The position numbers and the translations under genes are program-made. A DNA stretch of 64,000 bases, taken from contig JASLKH010000035.1 in the NCBI GenBank assembly GCA_030747675.1, forward strand, positions 6,943-70,942. The letters are read 5' to 3'. Position 1 is the stretch's first letter, and the number at the start of each line of letters is the position of its first letter. Below, piece by piece: positions 38,315 to 49,407 of the stretch. The notes under the pieces were generated by a model, which searched no databases, was not told the DNA's origin, and was given only the letters and a program-made list of their open reading frames with translations. Origin of the DNA: Candidatus Thalassarchaeaceae archaeon. Its GTDB lineage: Archaea > Thermoplasmatota > Poseidoniia > Poseidoniales > Thalassarchaeaceae.

Positions 38315-38457
38315 GGTACTTCGACTCACTTCCCCACCATCAAACCTCGCTTTTCGGCGCCAGAAAAGTACCTCTGGGATTGGACTCCAACAGAGAATTC
38401 CAACTGGTGGGGTTTTAGATGGTCAAGTGAATCGGCGTTTTGTCTGGAGACTTGAAT

Positions 38458-40683
38458 ATGGCAGATGATGACGACAAAACACTTCCACTAAGAGTGGCAA
38501 AAGCAATACCAAGCGATGTGGGTCATGGGCGTGCACGTGTGCCTTTTGACAACGATTTAAACCTGAAACCTGGAGATGTTATCGAAATTAATGGTGAACA
38601 AAGTACTGCGGCAATTGTCTGGAGGTGTCGGCCGGAAGATGCGAATTTAGGTGTAATAAGAATTGATGGCATTATTAGAAAGAATGCTGGGGTTAGTTTA
38701 GGGGACAAAGTTACTGTTAGAAAAGTCGAAACAAAACCTTGTACTAGATTAATCCTATCTCCTGTAATGGCAAAGAAGCAGACCGTTCGTTTTGGGCCTG
38801 GAATTGAAGGATTTGCTCGCAGAGGCCTCAACAAAAGACCTGTGGTTGCTGGTGATCGAATCTTTATCCCTGGTATGACTCTCTTTGCTGAGGCATTGCC
38901 ATTTGCCATTGTTTCTACGGTGCCTAAGGGCATTGTGCAAGTATTACCTGATACTGAAATAGTCATCAAAGAGGAAGTTTTTGATGAAGAAGATGGAGGG
39001 GATGTTTCTTCGATAATGTACGAAGATATAGGTGGCCTAGGTAATCAATTACAGAAAGTACGAGAAATGATAGAATTACCACTAAAGCACCCAATTCTGT
39101 TCCGCCGGTTAGGAATAGACCCTCCAAAGGGAGTCTTACTCCACGGCCCCCCTGGGACTGGAAAAACAATGATTGCAAAAGCGGTCGCAAATGAAACGAA
39201 TGCCCATTTCACAAGTATTAATGGGCCCGAAATTATATCCAAATATTATGGTGAATCAGAGAAACAATTACGTGAAATTTTTGATAATGCTTCCAACAAT
39301 GCACCTGCAGTTATTTTCATTGATGAGCTTGATAGTATCGCACCAAAACGAGAAGATGTTTCAGGGGAAGTTGAACGACGTGTTGTCGCTCAATTACTCA
39401 CTCTAATGGATGGAATGCAAGGTCGAGATAATGTCGTTGTTATTGGAGCAACAAATCGACCTGATGCTATCGACCAAGCTCTACGTAGACCTGGTCGATT
39501 TGATCGCGAACTGGAAATTGGAGTTCCCGATAAAAATGGACGCAGAGAAATTGTCAACATTCACACTAGAGGTATGCCTATTGCTGATGATTTTGATATG
39601 GAATGGATTCTAGAAAACTCATATGGTTTTGTTGGTGCTGATGTTTCTGCACTTACTAGAGAAGCTGCAATGAAAGCATTGCGACGATATTTACCTGATA
39701 TAGACTTAGATCAAGATGAAATTCCTCCTGAAGTTCTTGAGAAAATGGAAGTTCAAATGGATGATTTCAAACTTGCAATACGCGAAATTGAACCAAGCGC
39801 ATTGCGTGAAATTTATGTTGAAGTTCCGGAAGTTTCTTGGGCAGATGTTGGTGGCTTAGAAGAAGTTAAAGAACGCTTGAAGGAGTCTGTTGAATGGCCA
39901 CTCACAATGCCAGATAGATTCGAACATTTCGGAATAAAACCACCCCGTGGAATTGTTCTATTCGGTGCACCTGGTACTGGAAAAACGTTGATTGCGAAAG
40001 CAATTGCAAATGAAGCAAAAGCCAATTTCATTACCATAAAAGGGCCTGAATTAATTTCCAAATGGGTTGGTGAGTCCGAACGAGCCGTTCGAGAAGTCTT
40101 CAAGAAAGCGAAGCAAGCAAGTCCCTCTATCATATTCCTAGACGAATTTGAATCAATAGCAGGAGTTAGGTCACAAAGCAGTGGAGAAGGGTCTGATGTT
40201 TCAAATCGTGTTGTAAATCAAATGCTATCCAGTATGGATGGTGTCGAATCAATGGAAGGAGTGATTGTTATTGCTGCTACTAACCGTCCTGAAATGATTG
40301 ACCCCGCGCTGCTCCGAAGTGGCCGCTTTGAACGAGTATTGCACATTCCACCCCCTGACCACTCCAGTTTGAAAGAAATTCTAAAAATACATTCAAAGGA
40401 CATGCCACTCGGGAAATTTGAACTCGATAATTTGACTGATAAAATGACTAATTTCACAGGCGCCGATGTTGAAGCTGTTTGCAGGGAAGCCGCTTTAATT
40501 GCAATGCGGGCAGAAAGAAAGACTGTTTCAAAGAAACATTTCGAAGAAGCAATTGGACGTGTACGTCCAACTATAACCCCTGAAATGCTCGAGTATTATG
40601 GCAAATTAGAATCTAGACTTACAAGTGGACTAGATAGTATTCGTAGAAAAACAGATACTCTAGCCGGAATAGAAAGTGTGTGA
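38458..40683 (+). CDS. cdc48: Cdc48/VCP-like AAA+ ATPase (two AAA domains)
   Basis: Two Walker A motifs (GPPGTGKT) are present, in D1 and D2, plus second-region-of-homology Arg fingers and a Cdc48 N-domain. I trimmed the start to the ATG at 38458 (GGAGA 8 nt upstream); the track start is a TTG at 38440. Confidence 0.9.
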
Positions 40684-40693
40684 GGTGAACAAG

Positions 40694-40936
40694 ATGCCTG
40701 CGGCTTTTAGTACTGAATTATCTGGCCGTAGAGTACTAGATCGACGTGGTGATTTGATTGGAAAAATCGTCGATTTAGTTGTTGACGAAGCAACTGGGAA
40801 TATATTGGGAATGCTGTTAAATCTTGATACTGGTTTGGATTCAAACCTGTTGCCATGGCCTAAACATGGAGACTATCTTCTCATTCCGACAGAAGAAATT
40901 GAGAGTGTAGATGAAGATATTCATATCGCTCGTTAA
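40694..40936 (+). CDS. PRC-barrel domain protein
   Basis: The 80-aa ORF is PRC-barrel-like (LSGRRVLDRRGDLIGKIVDLVVDEATGNILGMLL...LLIPTEEIESV). GAGGTGA lies 5 nt upstream of its ATG, which is 10 nt after the cdc48 stop. Confidence 0.6.
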   Translation: MPAAFSTELSGRRVLDRRGDLIGKIVDLVVDEATGNILGMLLNLDTGLDSNLLPWPKHGDYLLIPTEEIESVDEDIHIAR

Positions 40937-41047
40937 CCCGCCCGTAGGGCGGGATGCAATAGCCACCCATCACCACGCAACGGTCTTAAGGCTCGGTTCG
41001 GCGTCTTCCCCGTGCACATCGGACTCGATGTGGAGAGGTATCTGTAA
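40937..41047 (+). other. GC-rich structured intergenic element with two perfect 7-bp hairpins
   Basis: The first hairpin is CCCGCCC-GTA-GGGCGGG (40937-40953), immediately after the PRC stop. The second is CACATCG-GACT-CGATGTG (41015-41032), immediately before GGAGAGG and the next ATG. The spacer is GC-rich, unlike the other intergenic regions. Confidence 0.3.
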
Positions 41048-42715
41048 ATGAATCTCCCTAATATCGACCTCAAAACCGTATTGCGGTCAAAGAAAGTGAG
41101 GCGCAGTGGCCTGACTTTGGCATTTTACTTAGTTCTGGCTTTGCTCTTGTATAGTATTGTCAGTTCGTACCTAGTCGATGGTGAACCACACCTTTCCGCA
41201 TACGATGATGACTGGGACGACTTGTCCACTTTCAGAAATGATTTGATAGATATGGGAGTTGAAACTGGAAGTCTTGTTTCTTCTGCTGTTTTACTTGAAG
41301 AAATTGATAATCCGGAGGATACTGTATTTGTCATAACCGGAGTTGAACAGGATACAATTTCACTTCCGAGGTTTACAGGAGATACTGATGTGGTTCAATG
41401 GCAAGAATCTGAAGGATATACAACAACTGAAATTGAATCTATCTTTTCCTTTGTAGCAAAAGGTGGAACAATTATTGTCATGGATGATTTTGGTTGGTCT
41501 GGTGCACTTGCCGAAGCCTTTGGTCTACAATACAGTGGACACAGATTGTACGATGCTGAATCTTGGGCACGAGAACTGGATCACAATTATATTTGGATGA
41601 ATGTGACTGACCCTTACACATACACAACAATGGATATGTCGTCACAACACCCTTGTTTCTCAGACTCCGATGGTGATGGAATTATAGATAGATTAGATAA
41701 TCTCCCCAATAATCCCACAAACCCACAACAAATCACAGAAAGTGATGCCGGACTATGTGCACACCATTTAGAACAAAATGGAGATTGGAATTTTTCAACA
41801 AATTATAATGTTCTTCTCAACAGTCCATCTGCATTTGACAAGGATGCTGCAGAATTACAAACACAACGTCGATATGCAATAGGAACTTCTAGTCAAGATT
41901 CCTATCTTGATTCAAATAATGACGGTAACCTAACTGTAGGATTTGAAGGCGGTGGAGTGGAGAGTGATGAACAAGGACCTTTCACAATGGCTGTCAAAGT
42001 TTGTCAAAATGTGGATTGTGAGGAAAATGGGGGCATGCCAATGGGTCGAGCAATTTTCGTCACAGATGGTTCCGCTCTAATCAATGTCATTTATGATCAC
42101 GATGATGCAAATGAGGGCGACTATGGCAGTCTTGATGGAAAAGAAATTCCACTGAATGACAACCGGAAATGGATGCTAGACATGATTGCTGAATCGTTGT
42201 TATCACATGACAATTCGACTGATTCTAATGGAGAGCCCACTGGAGCTTCTGGCTCAGGAAAACAAGTTATTTTTGATGAAAGTCGTCATCAACAACCCAG
42301 TGCTATGGGAGATACATACAATCTAATTTACTACATATTGGTATACTTCACAAATGATTGGATGGCAATGCTATTCCTCTTTCTGGCTTTATTCATTACA
42401 TTTGAAGCAATTATCATTAAGAAAATTGACCCTGAACCATGGCGACATGTATTCAGTATTATTTACTATGGATTTGGAGACGCTAGGCGCTATGGCTATT
42501 ATGGGCGTGCAAACAAAGTAAAGCAAGTTTTACTTTCCAGAGTAAGGAATCTAAATTCTCTTACGAGAGATGAATTTGATGCTCTTCCCGCCAGAGAATT
42601 ACAAAGAATGATTGGTGATCCTGTACTAGTTAAATTCGTATTTGAGGATAGGAACTACAGTCTAGAACAATTAGTTGCAGTCGTAAAACGAGTCAAAATG
42701 TGGGGCCGAAAGTAA
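41048..42715 (+). CDS. Membrane protein with N- and C-terminal TM helices flanking a large acidic extracytoplasmic domain (DUF4350-like topology)
   Basis: The 555-aa ORF has an N-terminal TM (LTLAFYLVLALLLYSIVSSYL) and a C-terminal TM (WMAMLFLFLALFITFEAIII). The segments GGTIIVMDDFGWSG and KQVIFDESRH resemble DUF4350-family features. Its position upstream of DUF58 supports the call. Confidence 0.4.
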   Translation: MNLPNIDLKTVLRSKKVRRSGLTLAFYLVLALLLYSIVSSYLVDGEPHLSAYDDDWDDLSTFRNDLIDMGVETGSLVSSAVLLEEIDNPEDTVFVITGVEQDTISLPRFTGDTDVVQWQESEGYTTTEIESIFSFVAKGGTIIVMDDFGWSGALAEAFGLQYSGHRLYDAESWARELDHNYIWMNVTDPYTYTTMDMSSQHPCFSDSDGDGIIDRLDNLPNNPTNPQQITESDAGLCAHHLEQNGDWNFSTNYNVLLNSPSAFDKDAAELQTQRRYAIGTSSQDSYLDSNNDGNLTVGFEGGGVESDEQGPFTMAVKVCQNVDCEENGGMPMGRAIFVTDGSALINVIYDHDDANEGDYGSLDGKEIPLNDNRKWMLDMIAESLLSHDNSTDSNGEPTGASGSGKQVIFDESRHQQPSAMGDTYNLIYYILVYFTNDWMAMLFLFLALFITFEAIIIKKIDPEPWRHVFSIIYYGFGDARRYGYYGRANKVKQVLLSRVRNLNSLTRDEFDALPARELQRMIGDPVLVKFVFEDRNYSLEQLVAVVKRVKMWGRK

Positions 42716-42729
42716 CGAGGTGAGCAAAG

Positions 42730-43980
42730 ATGTGGACACGGAAAGCAGCGTTGATGCTAGCATCAGGTATTTCTCTTGTTCTAATTGGAATGATGATTGC
42801 AAACTTCGCATTAATGATTCTAGGGCTGATGTTTTGCTCATTCCTTGCTATCAATGGATGGGTCTCAGGACATGGGGATTTAGAAATCGTGCGTACTCTC
42901 TCTGCGGATAACCTCTACAAAGGAGACGATTTGTATGTTGAACTTGCAATCACCAATAACTCATTTCGAAGGACTCAACAAATTGAAGTCTTTGACAACG
43001 TCCCTCATGAAATGAAATTGCGTAGTGGATTAAATTACATGCGTGTTAATCTCGGACCTAACGAAACCACACGTATTCGTTATGTCCTACGGTGTCCTTT
43101 ACGAGGACACTATTCATTTGGCCCTGTATCCATCAGATATCGAAATACATTCAATTTGTTTAGCCAGGAGATGTATGTCGACCATCGCTCTGGGCTAATC
43201 GTCTTCCCTCAAGTTCGAGAAATTGAAGAAGCAATGATTCGTTCTCGTACCCCAAAAATGTACACTGGTGCAGCCACACTACGGACCCCTGGCCCTGGTA
43301 CCGAATTTTATTCATTGAGAGAATATGTACCTGGTGATCCATTCAAGATCATCAATTGGAAAGCATTTGCAAGAACTGGTGTAATGATGGTCAATGAAAA
43401 ATGTCGAGATGCTGTAACAGATGTTTTCATATTGCTAGATTCACGTGATGTTTCAAGAATCGGAACTGTTCTAAAAAACCCATTAGAAATGGGAACTATT
43501 GCTGCAGCCAGTTTGGCATCATATTTCATCAAAAGGCGTGATTCAATTGCACTGGCTGTATTTGATGATAAGCTATCTTACCTTCCTGCCGATGGAGGAG
43601 ATAAACAATATTTCAAAATTCTAAGTAGCCTGGCAGGTGTTGCTCCTCGTGGCAATATGCCTTTACAGGCAGTTACCAATGCATTAGCACCAAGGTTCAG
43701 TCGTGGAAGCCCTGTTTTCATTATCAGTAGTTTAGAGGGCGATGGAACGGTACCTCATGCAATCCGGGATCTTGCTGGAAGAGGGCATGAAGTAGTCATA
43801 TTATCGCCAAGTAGTATTGACTACGAGAGGTTAGTTAGTCGGATACCCCGGATGTCATATGAAGTCATGAAACTTGAGCGCCAGAATCGTCTTTCTGCTG
43901 TTGCAGGTTATGGAGCACGTGTAATTGATTGGATGCCTGATGTAGAACTATCTCAGGCACTCCTTCAGGTGAAAATGTGA
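42730..43980 (+). CDS. DUF58-family protein (MoxR/VWA-system associated)
   Basis: The diagnostic DUF58 motif REYVPGDPFKIINWKAFARTG is present, followed by a VWA-like region (VFILLDSRD). Two TM helices are N-terminal. GAGGTGA lies before the ATG. Confidence 0.7.
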   Translation: MWTRKAALMLASGISLVLIGMMIANFALMILGLMFCSFLAINGWVSGHGDLEIVRTLSADNLYKGDDLYVELAITNNSFRRTQQIEVFDNVPHEMKLRSGLNYMRVNLGPNETTRIRYVLRCPLRGHYSFGPVSIRYRNTFNLFSQEMYVDHRSGLIVFPQVREIEEAMIRSRTPKMYTGAATLRTPGPGTEFYSLREYVPGDPFKIINWKAFARTGVMMVNEKCRDAVTDVFILLDSRDVSRIGTVLKNPLEMGTIAAASLASYFIKRRDSIALAVFDDKLSYLPADGGDKQYFKILSSLAGVAPRGNMPLQAVTNALAPRFSRGSPVFIISSLEGDGTVPHAIRDLAGRGHEVVILSPSSIDYERLVSRIPRMSYEVMKLERQNRLSAVAGYGARVIDWMPDVELSQALLQVKM

Positions 43981-43993
43981 GAGGTGAAACTAT

Positions 43994-45245
43994 GGCAGAT
44001 GATGTTCAACCTCAAGCAGAAGGGATGACTACACTACATCTTCGTGCTTTACGTAAAGATTGGCGCGTCGTTGGTTTGCAAATGGTCGCAAGTCTTGCTT
44101 TAATTTGGCTATTCCTTACGATGACTCAAGTTTTTGGAAGTTGTCATCCTTCTTATGAAGACCAAGGAGCATGGTGTCCAGCACTAGATCATACTCTCAC
44201 TCTGGATACGATGGATGAATATCTTGAAGACGCTGGTGGTGATTTCTCTGAATTACCAATACCTGACTGGATGACTGGACAAGGCAACGATGGTGATGGC
44301 CGTTACCTTATGCCAATTTTCATCATGCTAACTATCGCAGCAGGATGGGTTTTACTAAATTTTCAAGCTCCAAAATTACGTCGTAAAATTACCTTAGGTG
44401 TACTTGGGGGTTTAATTTTCTTCTTAGCGGGAATGTTTCTATTAACTTGGACATTTGGAATGTTAACTAGTTTTGATCTCTATTTACCATTTGGCCATAG
44501 CGATGAATCGATGAATCACGCCAATAGATTAGTGTGGCCGTTAGCAGTGTATATTGAATCACTTATTGTGGTTCTAATATTATCACCTGTCCTCTTTGGA
44601 TTGATGGGGATTTGGGGTTTATCAAAACGAATGATAAATTGGTCTGTCGCTGTGATGCTAATTTATCTCGCTCTATACGCTCTTCTCTCTTATGAAGGAG
44701 TAGTCAATCAATTGGCAGATAGTTCAGACCCGTACAAACCGGGGCTAAATCCCTTACCAACTCAAATTGGAGAAGCAGATACCCTTGGAGGCTTAATCTC
44801 CGGAGAAATTTGGAGTCTTCTTCTCATCGCAATTCTATTGATGGTTTATTCAGAGACTGCACATGCAATAATTCGATTCTTGGAGTATGCATTCCGTCTA
44901 CCTGAATCGTGCAAAAAAGACCCAGAATACGTAGGGCAATTCAAAAATTTGTTAAACAGTCACATGCAACACACTGTGGTGATTATGTTTGCGATGGCTT
45001 TTGTCACAATGCTTGCACTAAAATTTGATGATTTAATAATTGAAGTTGTCTCTTGGGTGGGTTCAGGTCAGTGGAGTGGGCAAGTAAAAGATTCGCTTGA
45101 ACTCAGATTGGTATATGGGAAAGTAATCTCAGCAATGCTTTTCCTGACTTTCGTTGCAGGTATGCGCTATGTGGTTCCATGGCAACGTGTTGCTGGAATG
45201 GTTGAAGCGGCTATTCGTAAAACTAAAGGTAATTCCAATCCCTAA
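43994..45245 (+). CDS. Polytopic integral membrane protein (about 8 TM), third gene of the DUF58 cluster
   Basis: The 417-aa ORF has many hydrophobic helices. I trimmed the start from 43977 to the ATG at 43994 (GAGGTGA 5 nt upstream). Confidence 0.45.
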
Positions 45246-45529
45246 TTGCGCCTAATATGAATTGCATTGATTAGGCGCCCAAACGCTTCAGAAATAATCA
45301 GTATCGCAATTGGTAAGCCACAAATTGTGGTTGTCCAAATCAGGTAGTTAGCCCAATTACTATCATTCCATAACCAAATTCCTGCATAAACAGCAGAACA
45401 GAAAGTGAGGACAAAGGCTAATTTTTCCACTACATGTGGGTAGGCGCGACCACGGTATTCAGTTCGACCAATTAAAGTCCCTGCTCCTTGAGCCGCGTCC
45501 ATTGGAGACTGAGGCGTCTCATCCATCAT
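45242..45529 (-). CDS. Small membrane protein (2 TM)
   Basis: The ORF is 95 aa after trimming the start to the ATG at 45529. It lies 8 nt downstream of the giant coiled-coil gene on the same strand. Confidence 0.35.
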   Translation of the reverse strand: MMDETPQSPMDAAQGAGTLIGRTEYRGRAYPHVVEKLAFVLTFCSAVYAGIWLWNDSNWANYLIWTTTICGLPIAILIISEAFGRLINAIHIRRN

Positions 45530-45536
45530 TTTCACC

Positions 45537-48500
45537 TCAGAAATCAAGATCCGAAAGTTCTCTTTCCAAGTCATCAAGCGCATCTCTATGTTCAGGATTT
45601 GCTGGAGGTGGTACACCATTTTCTGTTGATTCTCTTAAATCAGCAGAGGCATCGACTTTAGATAACTCAACATCAATTTGTGCCATTAATTCAACTTCTG
45701 AAGGAATTCCAGGGGCATCTACAGGTACAAGGCCTGCAGAAATCCGAGTTGAGATATCAATGCCATCGTTTTCAGCAGCTTCCTCAATTGGTTCCCACGT
45801 TGAATTTGATGCAGGTGCTTGCTTAACATCTGAATTAGGAACTGCCGTAGAGGCACTTGAGGTGACCATATCTGGAACAATTACTACAGGTGTATCTTTC
45901 TCAATTGGATTCATTTGAATCACAGCATCATTGTTAATCTCTGGTGTTTCATGACGGGCCAAACCATCCGCCTCAAACGGAAGGCTTCCCGTACGTTGGA
46001 ACGACCAAATTGCCCCCACTGGTTCATCACCAGATAGTCCTGCAACATCCAGCCTTCGTAGTAACTGTTCCAACACCTCAACAGTTTCTGCTAAACCAAC
46101 AGCATCTCCTGCATTCCTGCGATCAGCATCAAGATATATTTCATCTAATGAACGTTGAATCATTCTGCGTACTTCAACTGAAAGGTGAGGTAATGCTTCA
46201 GGCATATGACTAAATCGTTCCAATGGCTTAATCTCCTCTGCTGGTAAACCAAGATCAACTAGGCCTCGAAGTACCTCTTCTAATTGGGTTAACATTGTTA
46301 CTGAAGTCTCATATTCATCAAGGAGACCTTCAAGATCAATAACAACATGCTGCACAGTTTCTGCCAATTGATGCTCGAGTCGAGATTGCACACTCCACCG
46401 TGTCAACCCACGCACCGTATTTGCTGTTTCGGGGGCCTGACGTTCAAGTAAATCCATGACCTCAGTTGAAAGAAGATAACGCGGTGTTCTTGCTACTTCG
46501 TCGACACTGTGTTGAATTATGCTAAGTGCGCGCTCAACTGCTCTGTCCAATAATACAATGCTGTATCCTCGACTCCTTGCATTTGCCATACGATTCAATA
46601 CTGGTTCAAGACCTGAAAGGCCACGGTCATCACCAAGTAATGCTTGAGCGAGGGGTTCTTCCGAGAGGCGAGCTCGAATTTTATCTGCTTCCTGTAAATC
46701 AACTAAGGCCAATTCATGCGCTTCTTCCAAATCTTCAGCTTGTTCTAACAACATTCTTAATTCAGTTTCAGATTGAGCTTTACGTGCATCTAAATCCCCT
46801 AATTCACGTAATAGTAAGCGTCTTTCTTCCATCATTTCTCGCAATTCTGATTGCATTATCGTTGATTTTCTCTCTGAATCAGATAAGCGCCCTCTTTCCT
46901 CTTCCATTAATCGACGATGAGCATGAGATTCAGCCTCCAAATCTCCAAGTTCGGCTCGTTGTGATTCTATGCGACGTTCAGTTTCATCCAATTCTGCTTG
47001 TCCTAAACGATGCCTATCTCTTTGGGCACCGACCTGTTCTGTGAGAACTCTTTGCAAGCGTTCATCATGATCTAATGATTTTCGCACCTCGTCCAAACGT
47101 GTATCTGCAGCAGAAAGTTCCGATTTCACGCGTGCTTCTTCTTCGGATAACTCTCGTAAATCTTGAAGCAAGGATTCTCGTGAATCAAATTCACCGAGGG
47201 CACTGGCTAACTCTTCAGCCCTTTTTCCAACCATATGCTCTAATTCAGCAACTCGTTTCGATAGCCTATCGGATAATGATGTCGCTTCATCTGATGAACC
47301 CTCAGCTGAGCGAATTCTTGCAGTCAAATCATCAATATCTCTATGCAAAGAACTTCGCTCGTCTCTTGATTCTGATAAAGAATTCTCCAAGTCATGCATC
47401 GTTTCTCTAGCATCATCTCTAGACGAGCGTGCATCTGATAATTCCCTTTCCAAACGTGCCTTCTCACGCTCTAAGGATATTCTCGAATGCTCAAGTTGTT
47501 CTAACCGCTGCTTGAATTCACCAGATGCTGGAGTCAATACTTTCCCTTTTGGACCTGGCATTAATTTGGCAGTTCCTGAACCAGCTTCAATCATTTTCCA
47601 GGACGTACGGCCTACTTCCATCGCTTCAACTCCGAGTGCAAAGCCAAAGAGTGCATCTAGACGATTTGAAAGTAATTTCTTACGATCTTCAGATCGAGTA
47701 CGTGAGTTTGTAATTGCATCAACAAGGTGGGCTAAAGACCAGTCCTCAACAGTGGATCCAGCTAGTCCGAGACGTGAGCCTCTATCTAATCGATGAAGTC
47801 GTAACCTTCGAGTAGATGCAGTCATGGAATGTACTGAGTCTGACAATGTCGCCCCTAATGATTCACGTATTCCTGATGGGACTCCATCAATCAAAACTAT
47901 TGATATTGAATCATCTGAATCACTCATTGATTCTAAATGCCCAGTGATTTTGTCTTCATCAGAAATTCGAAGCATGGATATTAATTGATCAATTCCACTT
48001 TTACTTTCCTTTACAATGAAACCTTCGGAAAGTTCACCACCTTCTGTAATTACGTCATCTGGTTCACCAACGACTAAACTAGCAGCATTGGACAATACTG
48101 CATATCCATCCGCTGAATGGCGACACCATAGACCTACGATTGCTTGACCTGTCTCAGAAAAAATTAGTTGCCCTTTATCTAGGCGTATGCTTGCAGATAA
48201 TGGATCTGATTGTCCGAACTCTGAAGCCATACTGCGAAGTGCATTCATTCTCTCTTGACCTGTTTCAGCTAATCCCTGTGGGGTGCTAGGCAAATTGCCT
48301 GAATTATGAATCAAAACACCGTCTTCAAATGCAAGTGCACCCATGATTTCATCTGATTCTGTCAGTTTATCGACGAGTAAAGCAATGTCCTTTGTATCTA
48401 CAGGTAAGGCCGCTGCCCCTTGAGCAAGTAAAGAGGCCACATCTGTTGGATCAGGGAATGCCTCAGGGATTCTCTGAGCCACTTCAGTAAATTGCATTAT

Positions 48501-48773
48501 CGACCAAATGGCTCCCCGTGCACGTAAATCATGACCGTCTGATATTTCCAACAACCTCGCTTTAGCAGCCATCCCAGCAACAAAAGTTTGCTTTGCTTCT
48601 GCTTCCGCTAACCACCCTACAACTCGTCCACCGTGAACTAGGCAATGGGCTGATGCTGTTTTTGCTCTGGATTTATAGTGTGAGACGACGCCTGTTTCAA
48701 ATGGCATTTGTGTCTGAATAACACTCAAATCAGCTTCTGGATCGACTGGGTCACCTGGTGGTAAATTAAACAT
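45537..48773 (-). CDS. Giant protein (1078 aa): N-terminal Roadblock/LC7-like repeats, a long central coiled coil and an acidic low-complexity C-terminus
   Basis: Three or four repeats in the N-terminal ~400 aa match the Roadblock pattern (hydrophobic-G-x-hydrophobic ... DG, LGxG...L.V; for example MGALAFEDGVLIHNSG...LSASIRLDKGQLIFSETGQAIVGLWCR). Residues ~420-700 are heptad-like and E/R/L/D/S-rich (LERELSDARSSRDDARETMHDLENSL...). No Walker A or GTPase G1 motif was found. Confidence 0.5.
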   Translation of the reverse strand: MFNLPPGDPVDPEADLSVIQTQMPFETGVVSHYKSRAKTASAHCLVHGGRVVGWLAEAEAKQTFVAGMAAKARLLEISDGHDLRARGAIWSIMQFTEVAQRIPEAFPDPTDVASLLAQGAAALPVDTKDIALLVDKLTESDEIMGALAFEDGVLIHNSGNLPSTPQGLAETGQERMNALRSMASEFGQSDPLSASIRLDKGQLIFSETGQAIVGLWCRHSADGYAVLSNAASLVVGEPDDVITEGGELSEGFIVKESKSGIDQLISMLRISDEDKITGHLESMSDSDDSISIVLIDGVPSGIRESLGATLSDSVHSMTASTRRLRLHRLDRGSRLGLAGSTVEDWSLAHLVDAITNSRTRSEDRKKLLSNRLDALFGFALGVEAMEVGRTSWKMIEAGSGTAKLMPGPKGKVLTPASGEFKQRLEQLEHSRISLEREKARLERELSDARSSRDDARETMHDLENSLSESRDERSSLHRDIDDLTARIRSAEGSSDEATSLSDRLSKRVAELEHMVGKRAEELASALGEFDSRESLLQDLRELSEEEARVKSELSAADTRLDEVRKSLDHDERLQRVLTEQVGAQRDRHRLGQAELDETERRIESQRAELGDLEAESHAHRRLMEEERGRLSDSERKSTIMQSELREMMEERRLLLRELGDLDARKAQSETELRMLLEQAEDLEEAHELALVDLQEADKIRARLSEEPLAQALLGDDRGLSGLEPVLNRMANARSRGYSIVLLDRAVERALSIIQHSVDEVARTPRYLLSTEVMDLLERQAPETANTVRGLTRWSVQSRLEHQLAETVQHVVIDLEGLLDEYETSVTMLTQLEEVLRGLVDLGLPAEEIKPLERFSHMPEALPHLSVEVRRMIQRSLDEIYLDADRRNAGDAVGLAETVEVLEQLLRRLDVAGLSGDEPVGAIWSFQRTGSLPFEADGLARHETPEINNDAVIQMNPIEKDTPVVIVPDMVTSSASTAVPNSDVKQAPASNSTWEPIEEAAENDGIDISTRISAGLVPVDAPGIPSEVELMAQIDVELSKVDASADLRESTENGVPPPANPEHRDALDDLERELSDLDF

Positions 48774-48775
48774 GT

Positions 48776-49117
48776 TTATGCCTCGATTAAATCTTCAATT
48801 ATGGGGTTCAGTGCTTGTGCTTCATGGCGAAGTCTGCCGATGGGAGTAGTTACTGAAGATGCAATCCATATACTGCCACCTCCACGTAGTGTACTTACAA
48901 CTCGTCGTTTGTTTTCAGATTCAAGCCAAAGTTGATCAATTACTCCTAAATTCAGAACTGATGCCATGCGTGCTGCATCGTGCAATAATTCAGCGTATAG
49001 CGCACCAACTGGTGGCTTTTCTCCTGTCGTAACTACTGGTGTGCCATCTGCATTCAAAATAGAAGCACCATTCACACCCTCGATTTCATCAAGAGTTGAT
49101 AACAATCTATTGAGCAT
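48776..49117 (-). CDS. Roadblock/LC7 (MglB-like) domain protein
   Basis: The 113-aa ORF fits the Roadblock pattern (LLSTLDEIEGVNGASILNADGTPVVTTGE...GVIDQLWLESENKRRVVSTLRGGGSIWIAS). I trimmed the start to the ATG at 49117 (GAGGGG 4 nt upstream). It is 3 nt upstream of the giant coiled-coil gene. Confidence 0.6.
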   Translation of the reverse strand: MLNRLLSTLDEIEGVNGASILNADGTPVVTTGEKPPVGALYAELLHDAARMASVLNLGVIDQLWLESENKRRVVSTLRGGGSIWIASSVTTPIGRLRHEAQALNPIIEDLIEA

Positions 49118-49407
49118 TGGACCCCTCAAAATCATTTGAGGATGAAATTGAGTTCAAGAACTTGTCCCAATTCGGCCCCTAAGGGGGCCGTTTCTAGAGG
49201 GGTTTCAAATCGCCAACTGAAATGCGGGTTTTTTCGAATTAAAGTCGTTTATTGATCCTTCAATATTAGGCTATCGAAGTTTTTAGACTGGCTCATATCG
49301 AGATTTTCGACTTTGATAAATTTCTAATTGTAAATTTAAAAAGTCAATTGGTAAATTATTCTCAAAACCATAGTTGATTTGAAGAATAGAACCACTTCGC
49401 AGGATTT

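Follow-up and report, generated by a model that had tools for sequence, protein, structure and literature searches.

A 64,000-nucleotide stretch of DNA from a Candidatus Thalassarchaeaceae archaeon (Marine Group IIb, order Poseidoniales; assembly GCA_030747675.1, contig JASLKH010000035.1, positions 6,943 to 70,942; the whole stretch is called the window here) carries on its minus strand three tightly packed genes organised around the Roadblock/LC7 fold. The first (48776..49117) encodes a small Roadblock/LC7 protein of 113 amino acids (aa), the second (45537..48773, stop codon included) a giant protein of 1078 aa in which a Roadblock domain is fused to a long rod, and the third (45242..45529) a protein of 95 aa with two predicted transmembrane (TM) segments. 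The reading favoured here, tentatively and with a probability of about 0.4, is that this trio encodes one membrane-associated complex specific to Poseidoniales. In such a complex, the small protein would pair with the Roadblock domain of the giant, as in LAMTOR2/3 or MglB/MglC, a pairing that is expected from the dimeric mode of action of Roadblock domains. Two copies of the giant would join through the rod to give an elongated dimer of about 40 nm, and the two-TM protein would tether this assembly to the membrane on its cytoplasmic side by way of conserved basic segments in the cytosol. A client could be recruited by the C-terminal domain of the giant and by its flexible acidic tail peptide, and the Roadblock platform could either bind or control an NTPase whose gene lies elsewhere or serve as an adaptor independent of any GTPase. 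Candidate cellular processes include polarity and the positioning of the division site or of a surface machine.

The spacing of the genes is the first element of this argument. Only 2 nt separate the TAA of the small gene from the ATG of the giant gene, with GAGG located just before that ATG, and the two-TM gene is read from ATG 45529, 7 nt past the giant stop codon, with a GGTGA Shine–Dalgarno-like motif 3-7 nt before it. Both motifs sit inside the preceding gene. Taken together, the gaps of 2 and 7 nt and the Shine–Dalgarno-like motifs mark the three genes, as far as their sequence tells, as a translationally coupled operon. A preliminary description of this DNA, made from the letters alone, had reported three minus-strand genes separated by 3-8 nt; the close packing is confirmed, and the measured distances replace those given there. 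For the small gene, the most likely start is ATG 49117 (MLNRLL...), which is preceded by a GAGG/GAGGGG Shine–Dalgarno sequence and is the start used in orthologues and in the NCBI model. The complete open reading frame (ORF) spans 48776-49135, and its upstream ATG at 49135 would give an alternative protein of 119 aa. The longest ORF at the third gene (45242-45619, 125 aa) overlaps the giant gene; the 95-aa form is the one to be read. Pfam offers no family for the two-TM protein and no whole-protein family for the giant.

The trio is also maintained across a wide range of genomes. A pattern scan for the giant, with each GTDB species represented by a single genome, yielded 61 loci. All come from Poseidoniales (Thalassarchaeaceae, Poseidoniaceae) or from unclassified 'Methanobacteriota/Thermoplasmatota' metagenome-assembled genomes (MAGs), plus one 'Salinimicrobium' contig. 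The last of these (L062, CAXRAI010000014.1) holds a full Poseidoniales-type module under a MAG assigned to Salinimicrobium sp. (Bacteroidota) and is probably a binning error. In profile searches, the small gene lies upstream in 54/54 loci and the two-TM gene downstream in 60/60, counts that include only loci whose contigs reach far enough and that represent both families of Poseidoniales; two apparent misses are ORF-calling artefacts. The survey of phyletic distribution that the preliminary description had recommended has, in effect, found the module in every Poseidoniales locus that extends far enough. Additionally, 30 full-length homologues of the giant share 42-100% identity with it.

These data bear on two alternative explanations. 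According to the first, the giant ORF is an artefact of assembly or gene fusion, an outcome that the preliminary description had itself named as fatal to its interpretation. No supporting point was found, and the same full-length architecture, an ORF of 1020-1110 aa, occurs in more than 50 independent contigs and assemblies originating from many studies, which refutes this explanation and leaves it almost no credence. According to the second, the trio is adjacent simply because it lies in a block of conserved synteny, and its products form no complex. The flanking TtuA-like gene, pyrI/pyrB and a GHMP kinase, located upstream, are also syntenic in distant relatives, which speaks for a generally conservative gene order. 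Against this stand the 2-7 nt spacing with internal Shine–Dalgarno motifs, the co-occurrence of 54/54 and 60/60, and the downstream flank, which changes between clades (for instance, between loci L001 and L002) while the trio remains intact. Mere proximity is, on balance, a very unlikely explanation.

The identity of the small protein emerges from profiles built over many orthologues. As a single sequence, it matches Pfam Robl_LC7 (PF03259) with 18.6-18.8 bits (E about 0.0013-0.0015), which is below the gathering cutoff of 23, and just 4/20 of its orthologues match that family at E<0.1. Orthologues were gathered from related loci, and the profile of 20 aligned sequences (A3) matches the Thorarchaeota Roadblock protein 7f8m in the PDB with E=1.8e-10 over positions 4-104. 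Further matches comprise Rv3364c (E=1.9e-5), MglC 7ct3 (E=2.9e-5) and the Prometheoarchaeum Roadblock protein 7yh1 (E=3.3e-5); cvnB5 (3leq, E=2.2e-4) and, weakly, MglB are found at the lower end, and 9hef is matched as well. This profile indicates that the 113-aa protein is a genuine, divergent member of the Roadblock/LC7 family, as the preliminary description had proposed in calling it a single-domain Roadblock/LC7 protein. The additional label 'MglB-like' is unjustified, because the partner GTPase that defines that family was sought locally and not found. The 64-kb window contains no second Roadblock gene besides the module.

The second Roadblock unit lies within the giant, at aa 126-238 (48060..48398). 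An AlphaFold2 model of aa 1-420, built on an 18-sequence alignment, has a mean predicted local distance difference test (pLDDT) score of 63.5 and is confident only for aa ~127-233 and ~250-390. The former segment shows the topology α-β-β-α-β-β-β-α with pLDDT 80-88, and the top 50 Foldseek matches to it in the PDB are all Roadblock proteins, aligned over ~110 columns with target TM-scores (template modelling scores) of 0.55-0.76. The best is 7yh1 (E=2.2e-6), followed by 3kye, MP1/p14, MglB and Ragulator; for 7yh1, 3kye, 1veu and 6hjm, the Foldseek probability is 1.00 and the target TM-score 0.66-0.76. Moreover, a 13-sequence N-terminal profile matches PDB Roadblock chains through positions 128-237 only, with cvnB5 at E=6.9e-5 over 137-237 and weak matches to DYNLRB and LAMTOR4. 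Pfam Robl_LC7 is recognised in 5/13 giant orthologues (best E=7.4e-5), and hhalign relates aa 126-238 to the profile of the small protein with E=3.3e-5. Both the model and the profiles thus place a Roadblock domain at aa ~128-237, and it is the sole one detected in the giant.

This count differs from the preliminary description, in which the first ~400 aa were read as three or four tandem Roadblock domains. The fold check suggested there, carried out with Foldseek and profile searches, upholds a Roadblock fold at aa ~128-237 and reveals no further repeats; the tandem array was rejected on the results of AlphaFold2, Foldseek, hhalign and the PDB profile search, with aa 1-125 poorly modelled. 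When hhalign profiles of aa 1-125, 246-345 and 346-420 were compared with both Roadblock profiles, no Roadblock similarity was seen (E=0.2-0.7), with the exception of an 11-column match between aa 1-125 and the giant Roadblock segment (E=0.009, probability 4%). The N-terminal region itself (aa 1-125, 48399..48773) is conserved in alignments A1 and A4, with invariant residues M1, F2, L4, P5, G7, D11 and D15; it has no PDB or Pfam match, and its pLDDT is below 50. On the other side of the Roadblock domain, aa 246-395 (47589..48038) form a predicted α/β domain of the pattern β-α-β-β-β-α-β followed by helices. The model of aa 240-395 is confident (pLDDT 83) and has no structural match in the PDB, including no Roadblock or longin protein, which indicates a different fold. 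The pattern of aa 246-345 suggested a DUF4388/PATAN-like domain (PF14332), an idea for which hmmscan gave no support: none of 10 orthologue segments produced a match at E≤10, and none of 13 N-terminal regions did so at E≤1.

Behind these domains, aa 416-706 (46656..47528) form a charged helical rod, probably a coiled coil, that would measure ~43 nm if fully extended. It contains no proline at all and 39-48% charged residues, and a 3.5-residue hydrophobic periodicity is strong at aa 421-590 (8-15x background) and weaker at aa 560-700. In composition and periodicity, the ~300-aa coiled coil of the preliminary description is therefore real. The rod is also the only part of the giant matched by NCBIfam models of SMC/Rad50 arms, with E=3e-10 to 5e-5 and 20-38 bits against cutoffs of 300-1087. 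An SMC/Rad50 identity was rejected, since these matches reflect rod composition only and the giant has no P-loop and no Walker A/B ATPase head.

The following region, aa 707-955 (45909..46655), is the best-conserved part of the giant, with a mean pairwise identity of 0.64 versus 0.43 for the Roadblock domain. It looks helical by sequence pattern, is family-specific and has no Pfam match, and a PDB profile search gave nothing beyond a weak match of aa 812-911 (~46041-46340) to 1orj, the four-helix bundle of the flagellin chaperone FliS (E=0.011). This match is taken as no more than a lead, since the alignment is unconvincing and looks like a generic helical pattern. The protein ends in an acidic, proline-rich tail (aa 956-1078, 45540..45908) with two conserved short helices. 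Its 123 residues include 27 D+E, 7 K+R and 13 Pro, in agreement with the acidic tail noted in the preliminary description, and the last 16 (45540-45587) follow the motif ALxxLExxLxD[LIM][DE][FLIM]-COOH, which is kept from Marine Group IIa (MGIIa) to Marine Group IIb (MGIIb).

Such an architecture could also be that of a structural or cytoskeletal element. The giant would then be an intermediate-filament-like rod or polar organiser in which the Roadblock domains provide oligomerisation only and no NTPase is involved. The long, proline-free rod fits this idea, and no enzymatic domain was found in the giant by domain-family searches (Pfam, NCBIfam). Bacterial scaffolds such as FrzS and AglZ are built in a comparable way, with a small domain of signalling type at the N-terminus and a long coiled coil. 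However, the highest conservation falls on the globular C-terminal domain, and the terminal peptide is invariant, features that point to the binding of a specific partner, as does the presence of a dedicated membrane protein. A purely structural role is consequently regarded as improbable.

The C-terminal region also defines how far the family extends. A profile of aa 659-1078 was run against 1.84 billion cluster representatives in a filter-only HMMER search and recovered 75 proteins. All ten that are at least 1000 aa long place the match at ~650-1060, which corresponds to the same architecture, and almost all of the remaining matches are short fragments or frameshifted calls; a few are short calls in which an unrelated N-terminus is joined to the tail motif. 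No other architecture bearing this region was recovered from the 1.84 billion representatives. With matches limited to full-length orthologues and fragments, the C-terminal domain, and hence the family as defined, appears confined to Poseidoniales. An apparent distant relative (P0149) was dismissed as a frameshifted, low-coverage contig. Many family entries (P0035-P0148) begin at an internal Met equivalent to giant aa 659, 773, 795 or 803; they represent fragmentary or split gene calls and inflate the apparent number of 'small' family members. Five short proteins (P0195, P0200, P0202, P0206, P0214) carry the giant tail motif behind an unrelated N-terminus, which in P0195 is SAP-like ('MSDYENMTVAELKQLLKEAGLPVSGKKADLISRLEE'). 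These may be fragment or chimeric calls, or small proteins with a common docking peptide.

The third gene supplies the putative membrane anchor. Its product has two hydrophobic segments, at aa ~33-55 and 60-92, which are seen in 41/48 orthologues and bear out the 2-TM mini-protein of the preliminary description. Its N-terminal part holds the conserved motif TLxGRxExxGxxxP, and its C-terminal end is basic; the positive-inside rule would place both termini in the cytoplasm. One may speculate that the basic, predicted-cytosolic segments of this protein complement the charge of the acidic terminal helix of the giant.

The proposed pairing of the two Roadblock units can be approached through their co-variation. 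The pairwise divergence of the small protein tracks that of the giant Roadblock domain best (r=0.941, versus 0.89-0.92 for other segments of the giant). Furthermore, wherever the giant Roadblock domain has lost 3 residues (110 vs 113 aa), the small protein is shortened too (14/14 loci). The paired deletions may represent coupled remodelling of a common interface, probably as a single lineage event. The deletion lies in giant aa 160-195 (~48189-48296), where 33 residues replace 36, and is found in one MGIIb clade (loci L006-L022, L045, L017), in which the small protein is 12-25 residues shorter, cut to 88-101 aa through β2-α2 deletions.

Several observations weigh against a single complex. The co-variation rests on few evolutionary events, and the correlations are dominated by common phylogeny. 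Several orthologues of the small protein lack part of the β2-α2 region, which makes a canonical dimer interface uncertain. At aa 560-700, the evidence for a coiled coil is weak, and this part could instead be a single charged helix. Flanking synteny is conserved too, which makes co-occurrence alone weak evidence. Finally, the association of the small protein, the giant and the membrane protein is deduced from gene adjacency and TM prediction.

The best-known role of Roadblock proteins is the regulation of GTPases, and such a partner was looked for around the module. No ORF with GTPase motifs (G1+G3+G4 or G1+G4) was found in the window or, over a total of 1.13 Mb, within ~10 kb of the module in 64 loci. 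Such P-loops as occur in the searched sequence are those of Cdc48, a helicase-like protein and an Mrp/ParA-like protein. The preliminary description had already reported that no GTPase partner lies nearby, and the wider search confirms it. A cognate MglB is recognised by an MglA-family GTPase gene that lies only a few genes away and co-evolves with it (PMC4316618), and none was found in the window or in the 64 loci. This absence is less remarkable than the preliminary description implied, because 328/749 MglB homologues (44%) are not within four genes of MglA (PMC4316618) and an orphan state is thus not unusual. According to Wuichet and Søgaard-Andersen (2014), no orphan MglB had been experimentally characterised (PMC4316618).

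These considerations leave room for a classical MglB-type module, in which the Roadblock pair would be a platform with GTPase-activating or guanine-nucleotide-exchange function for a distally encoded Ras-like GTPase (MglA, Arf or Rag-like) and the giant would localise this activity. The established role of Roadblock proteins favours it, as do PDB neighbours that include MglB, LAMTOR and Asgard Roadblock proteins (PMC10933270) and the frequency of orphan mglB genes (PMC4316618). On the other hand, no GTPase-motif ORF accompanies the module within ~10 kb in any of the 64 loci. An MglB-type function is therefore considered unlikely. The single membrane-associated complex, with its NTPase elsewhere or dispensed with altogether, is preferred.

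Comparison with known systems places this complex in context. Scaffolding in the Myxococcus polarity pathway involves coiled-coil proteins. The Roadblock-domain proteins MglB and RomY take part in the polarity complex of that organism (PMC9481161), and small Myxococcus Roadblock proteins act in complexes, as proposed here. The common fold extends to Myxococcus MglB, MglC and RomY and to Thermus MglB (6hjm, 6h5b, 3t1s and 7ct3 were matched). In contrast to MglB, MglC and RomY, with which identity is only 14-21%, the module has no MglA-like gene nearby, its Roadblock domain is fused into a 1078-aa protein, and it has a dedicated 2-TM partner.

A second parallel is offered by Ragulator/LAMTOR (MP1-p14 and LAMTOR4/5 on LAMTOR1), in which Roadblock heterodimers are held at the membrane by a separate small anchor; a corresponding arrangement is predicted for the module. 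For the giant Roadblock domain, MP1/p14 was matched in structure and LAMTOR4, weakly, by profile. The putative anchor is a two-pass TM protein here, whereas in LAMTOR it is a lipidated wrap-around peptide. LAMTOR also lacks a coiled-coil rod and a conserved C-terminal domain like that of the giant, and the loci searched yielded no GTPase of the Rag type carrying a Roadblock domain at its C-terminus. SMC/Rad50 proteins resemble the giant through weak coiled-coil-arm matches on the rod, and they differ from it in that the giant has neither a Walker A/B head nor a hinge.

The actinobacterial conservon protein CvnB (3leq) is the best profile match of the giant Roadblock domain (E=6.9e-5), and the profile of the small protein matches both CvnB and Rv3364c. 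Conservons additionally contain the sensor kinase-like CvnA and the DUF742 protein CvnC. A Group 2 MglA-family GTPase is a further conservon component (PMC4316618), and none of these three is present in the module. In structure and sequence, the nearest neighbours of the two Roadblock units are Roadblock proteins of Asgard archaea (7yh1, 9jue, 7f8m; PMC10933270), which are likewise archaeal. The Asgard proteins are stand-alone, ~120 aa long and discussed together with small GTPases (PMC10933270), whereas the present module belongs to Thermoplasmatota and has a Roadblock domain fused to a rod.

Beyond its coding sequences, the operon is preceded by a conserved non-coding leader or promoter region (49118..49225, minus strand; alignments A8 and A9, with 37 and 20 loci). 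The ~130 nt before the operon are conserved across Poseidoniales more strongly than the protein sequence of the small gene. The leader holds an invariant AAGTTCTTGAA block (49153-49164) and a TTCAGTTGGCGA block, together with a GC hairpin, CGGCCCC-N4-GGGGCCG, at 49173-49190 whose loop is variable; other clades have different GC hairpins in the same place. In the clade of the window, a further CCTCAAA/TTTGAGG hairpin (49124-49141) is predicted to occlude the Shine–Dalgarno sequence. The fold of the window's leader has a z-score of -2.1. The leader matched no Rfam family, and across clades its consensus fold is empty and its covariation does not exceed that of shuffled alignments. The leader could be a regulatory structure of the 5' untranslated region or an operator.

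The genomic surroundings give the module a core character. It is neither a defence system nor a mobile element, and it lies in conserved core synteny beside the TtuA-like gene and pyrBI. A defence role was rejected in view of this synteny and of PADLOC, whose sole match, PycTM on the two-TM protein (E=0.0035), was read as TM-composition noise. Convergent with the operon, on the plus strand at 38440-45245, runs a row of genes for Cdc48 (two AAA domains), an 86-aa PRC-barrel-like protein, a DUF4350 protein, a DUF58 protein and a 422-aa multi-TM protein. The orthologue of the 86-aa protein in L002/L003 matches PF05239. In these MGIIb loci, the same Cdc48-DUF58 row lies beyond the module, set apart by a large CARDB protein and a cold-shock gene. 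The row resembles MoxR/DUF58-type envelope gene sets, and it includes no MoxR ATPase in the window.

With respect to novelty, the Roadblock fold and GTPase-orphan Roadblock genes are known already. The papers searched describe neither this architecture nor the two conserved but unassigned domains in it, a 2-TM partner dedicated to it or its conservation throughout the order, and no publication linking Roadblock proteins to Poseidoniales was found. The giant is 100% identical to NCBI MDP6906292.1, which is labelled 'hypothetical protein'. In databases, the module proteins are named 'hypothetical' throughout; the one exception is the small protein, to which JGI gives a label of COG type, 'predicted regulator of Ras-like GTPase activity (Roadblock/LC7/MglB family)'. 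The impression of the preliminary description, which did not recognise this architecture as described in Euryarchaeota, is thus sustained. In its fullest form, the proposal would be an order-wide, membrane-anchored Roadblock-heterodimer platform on a ~40 nm rod. Poseidoniales would then possess an organiser akin to Ragulator or to a polarity hub, in a lineage apart from Asgard archaea and eukaryotes. This platform would operate without a Ras-like GTPase or with a distal one, would include two domains lacking a PDB match (aa 240-395 by fold, aa 707-955 by sequence profile), and would end in a C-terminal docking peptide. This full form is quite improbable as a whole.

Archaea of Marine Group II rank among the most abundant archaea of the plankton. 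To our knowledge, they have no cultured representative, and their cell biology is almost wholly unexplored. An operon in which an ancient fold of NTPase regulators is joined by a long rod, a putative membrane anchor of its own and two conserved, unassigned domains is a candidate machine of spatial organisation in these cells. Nearly half of prokaryotic MglB-like genes are orphans (PMC4316618). The module also provides a well-defined example of an orphan Roadblock system with obvious candidate partners. Overall, it bears on how archaea may have used Roadblock platforms before, or apart from, the eukaryote-like systems of Asgard archaea.

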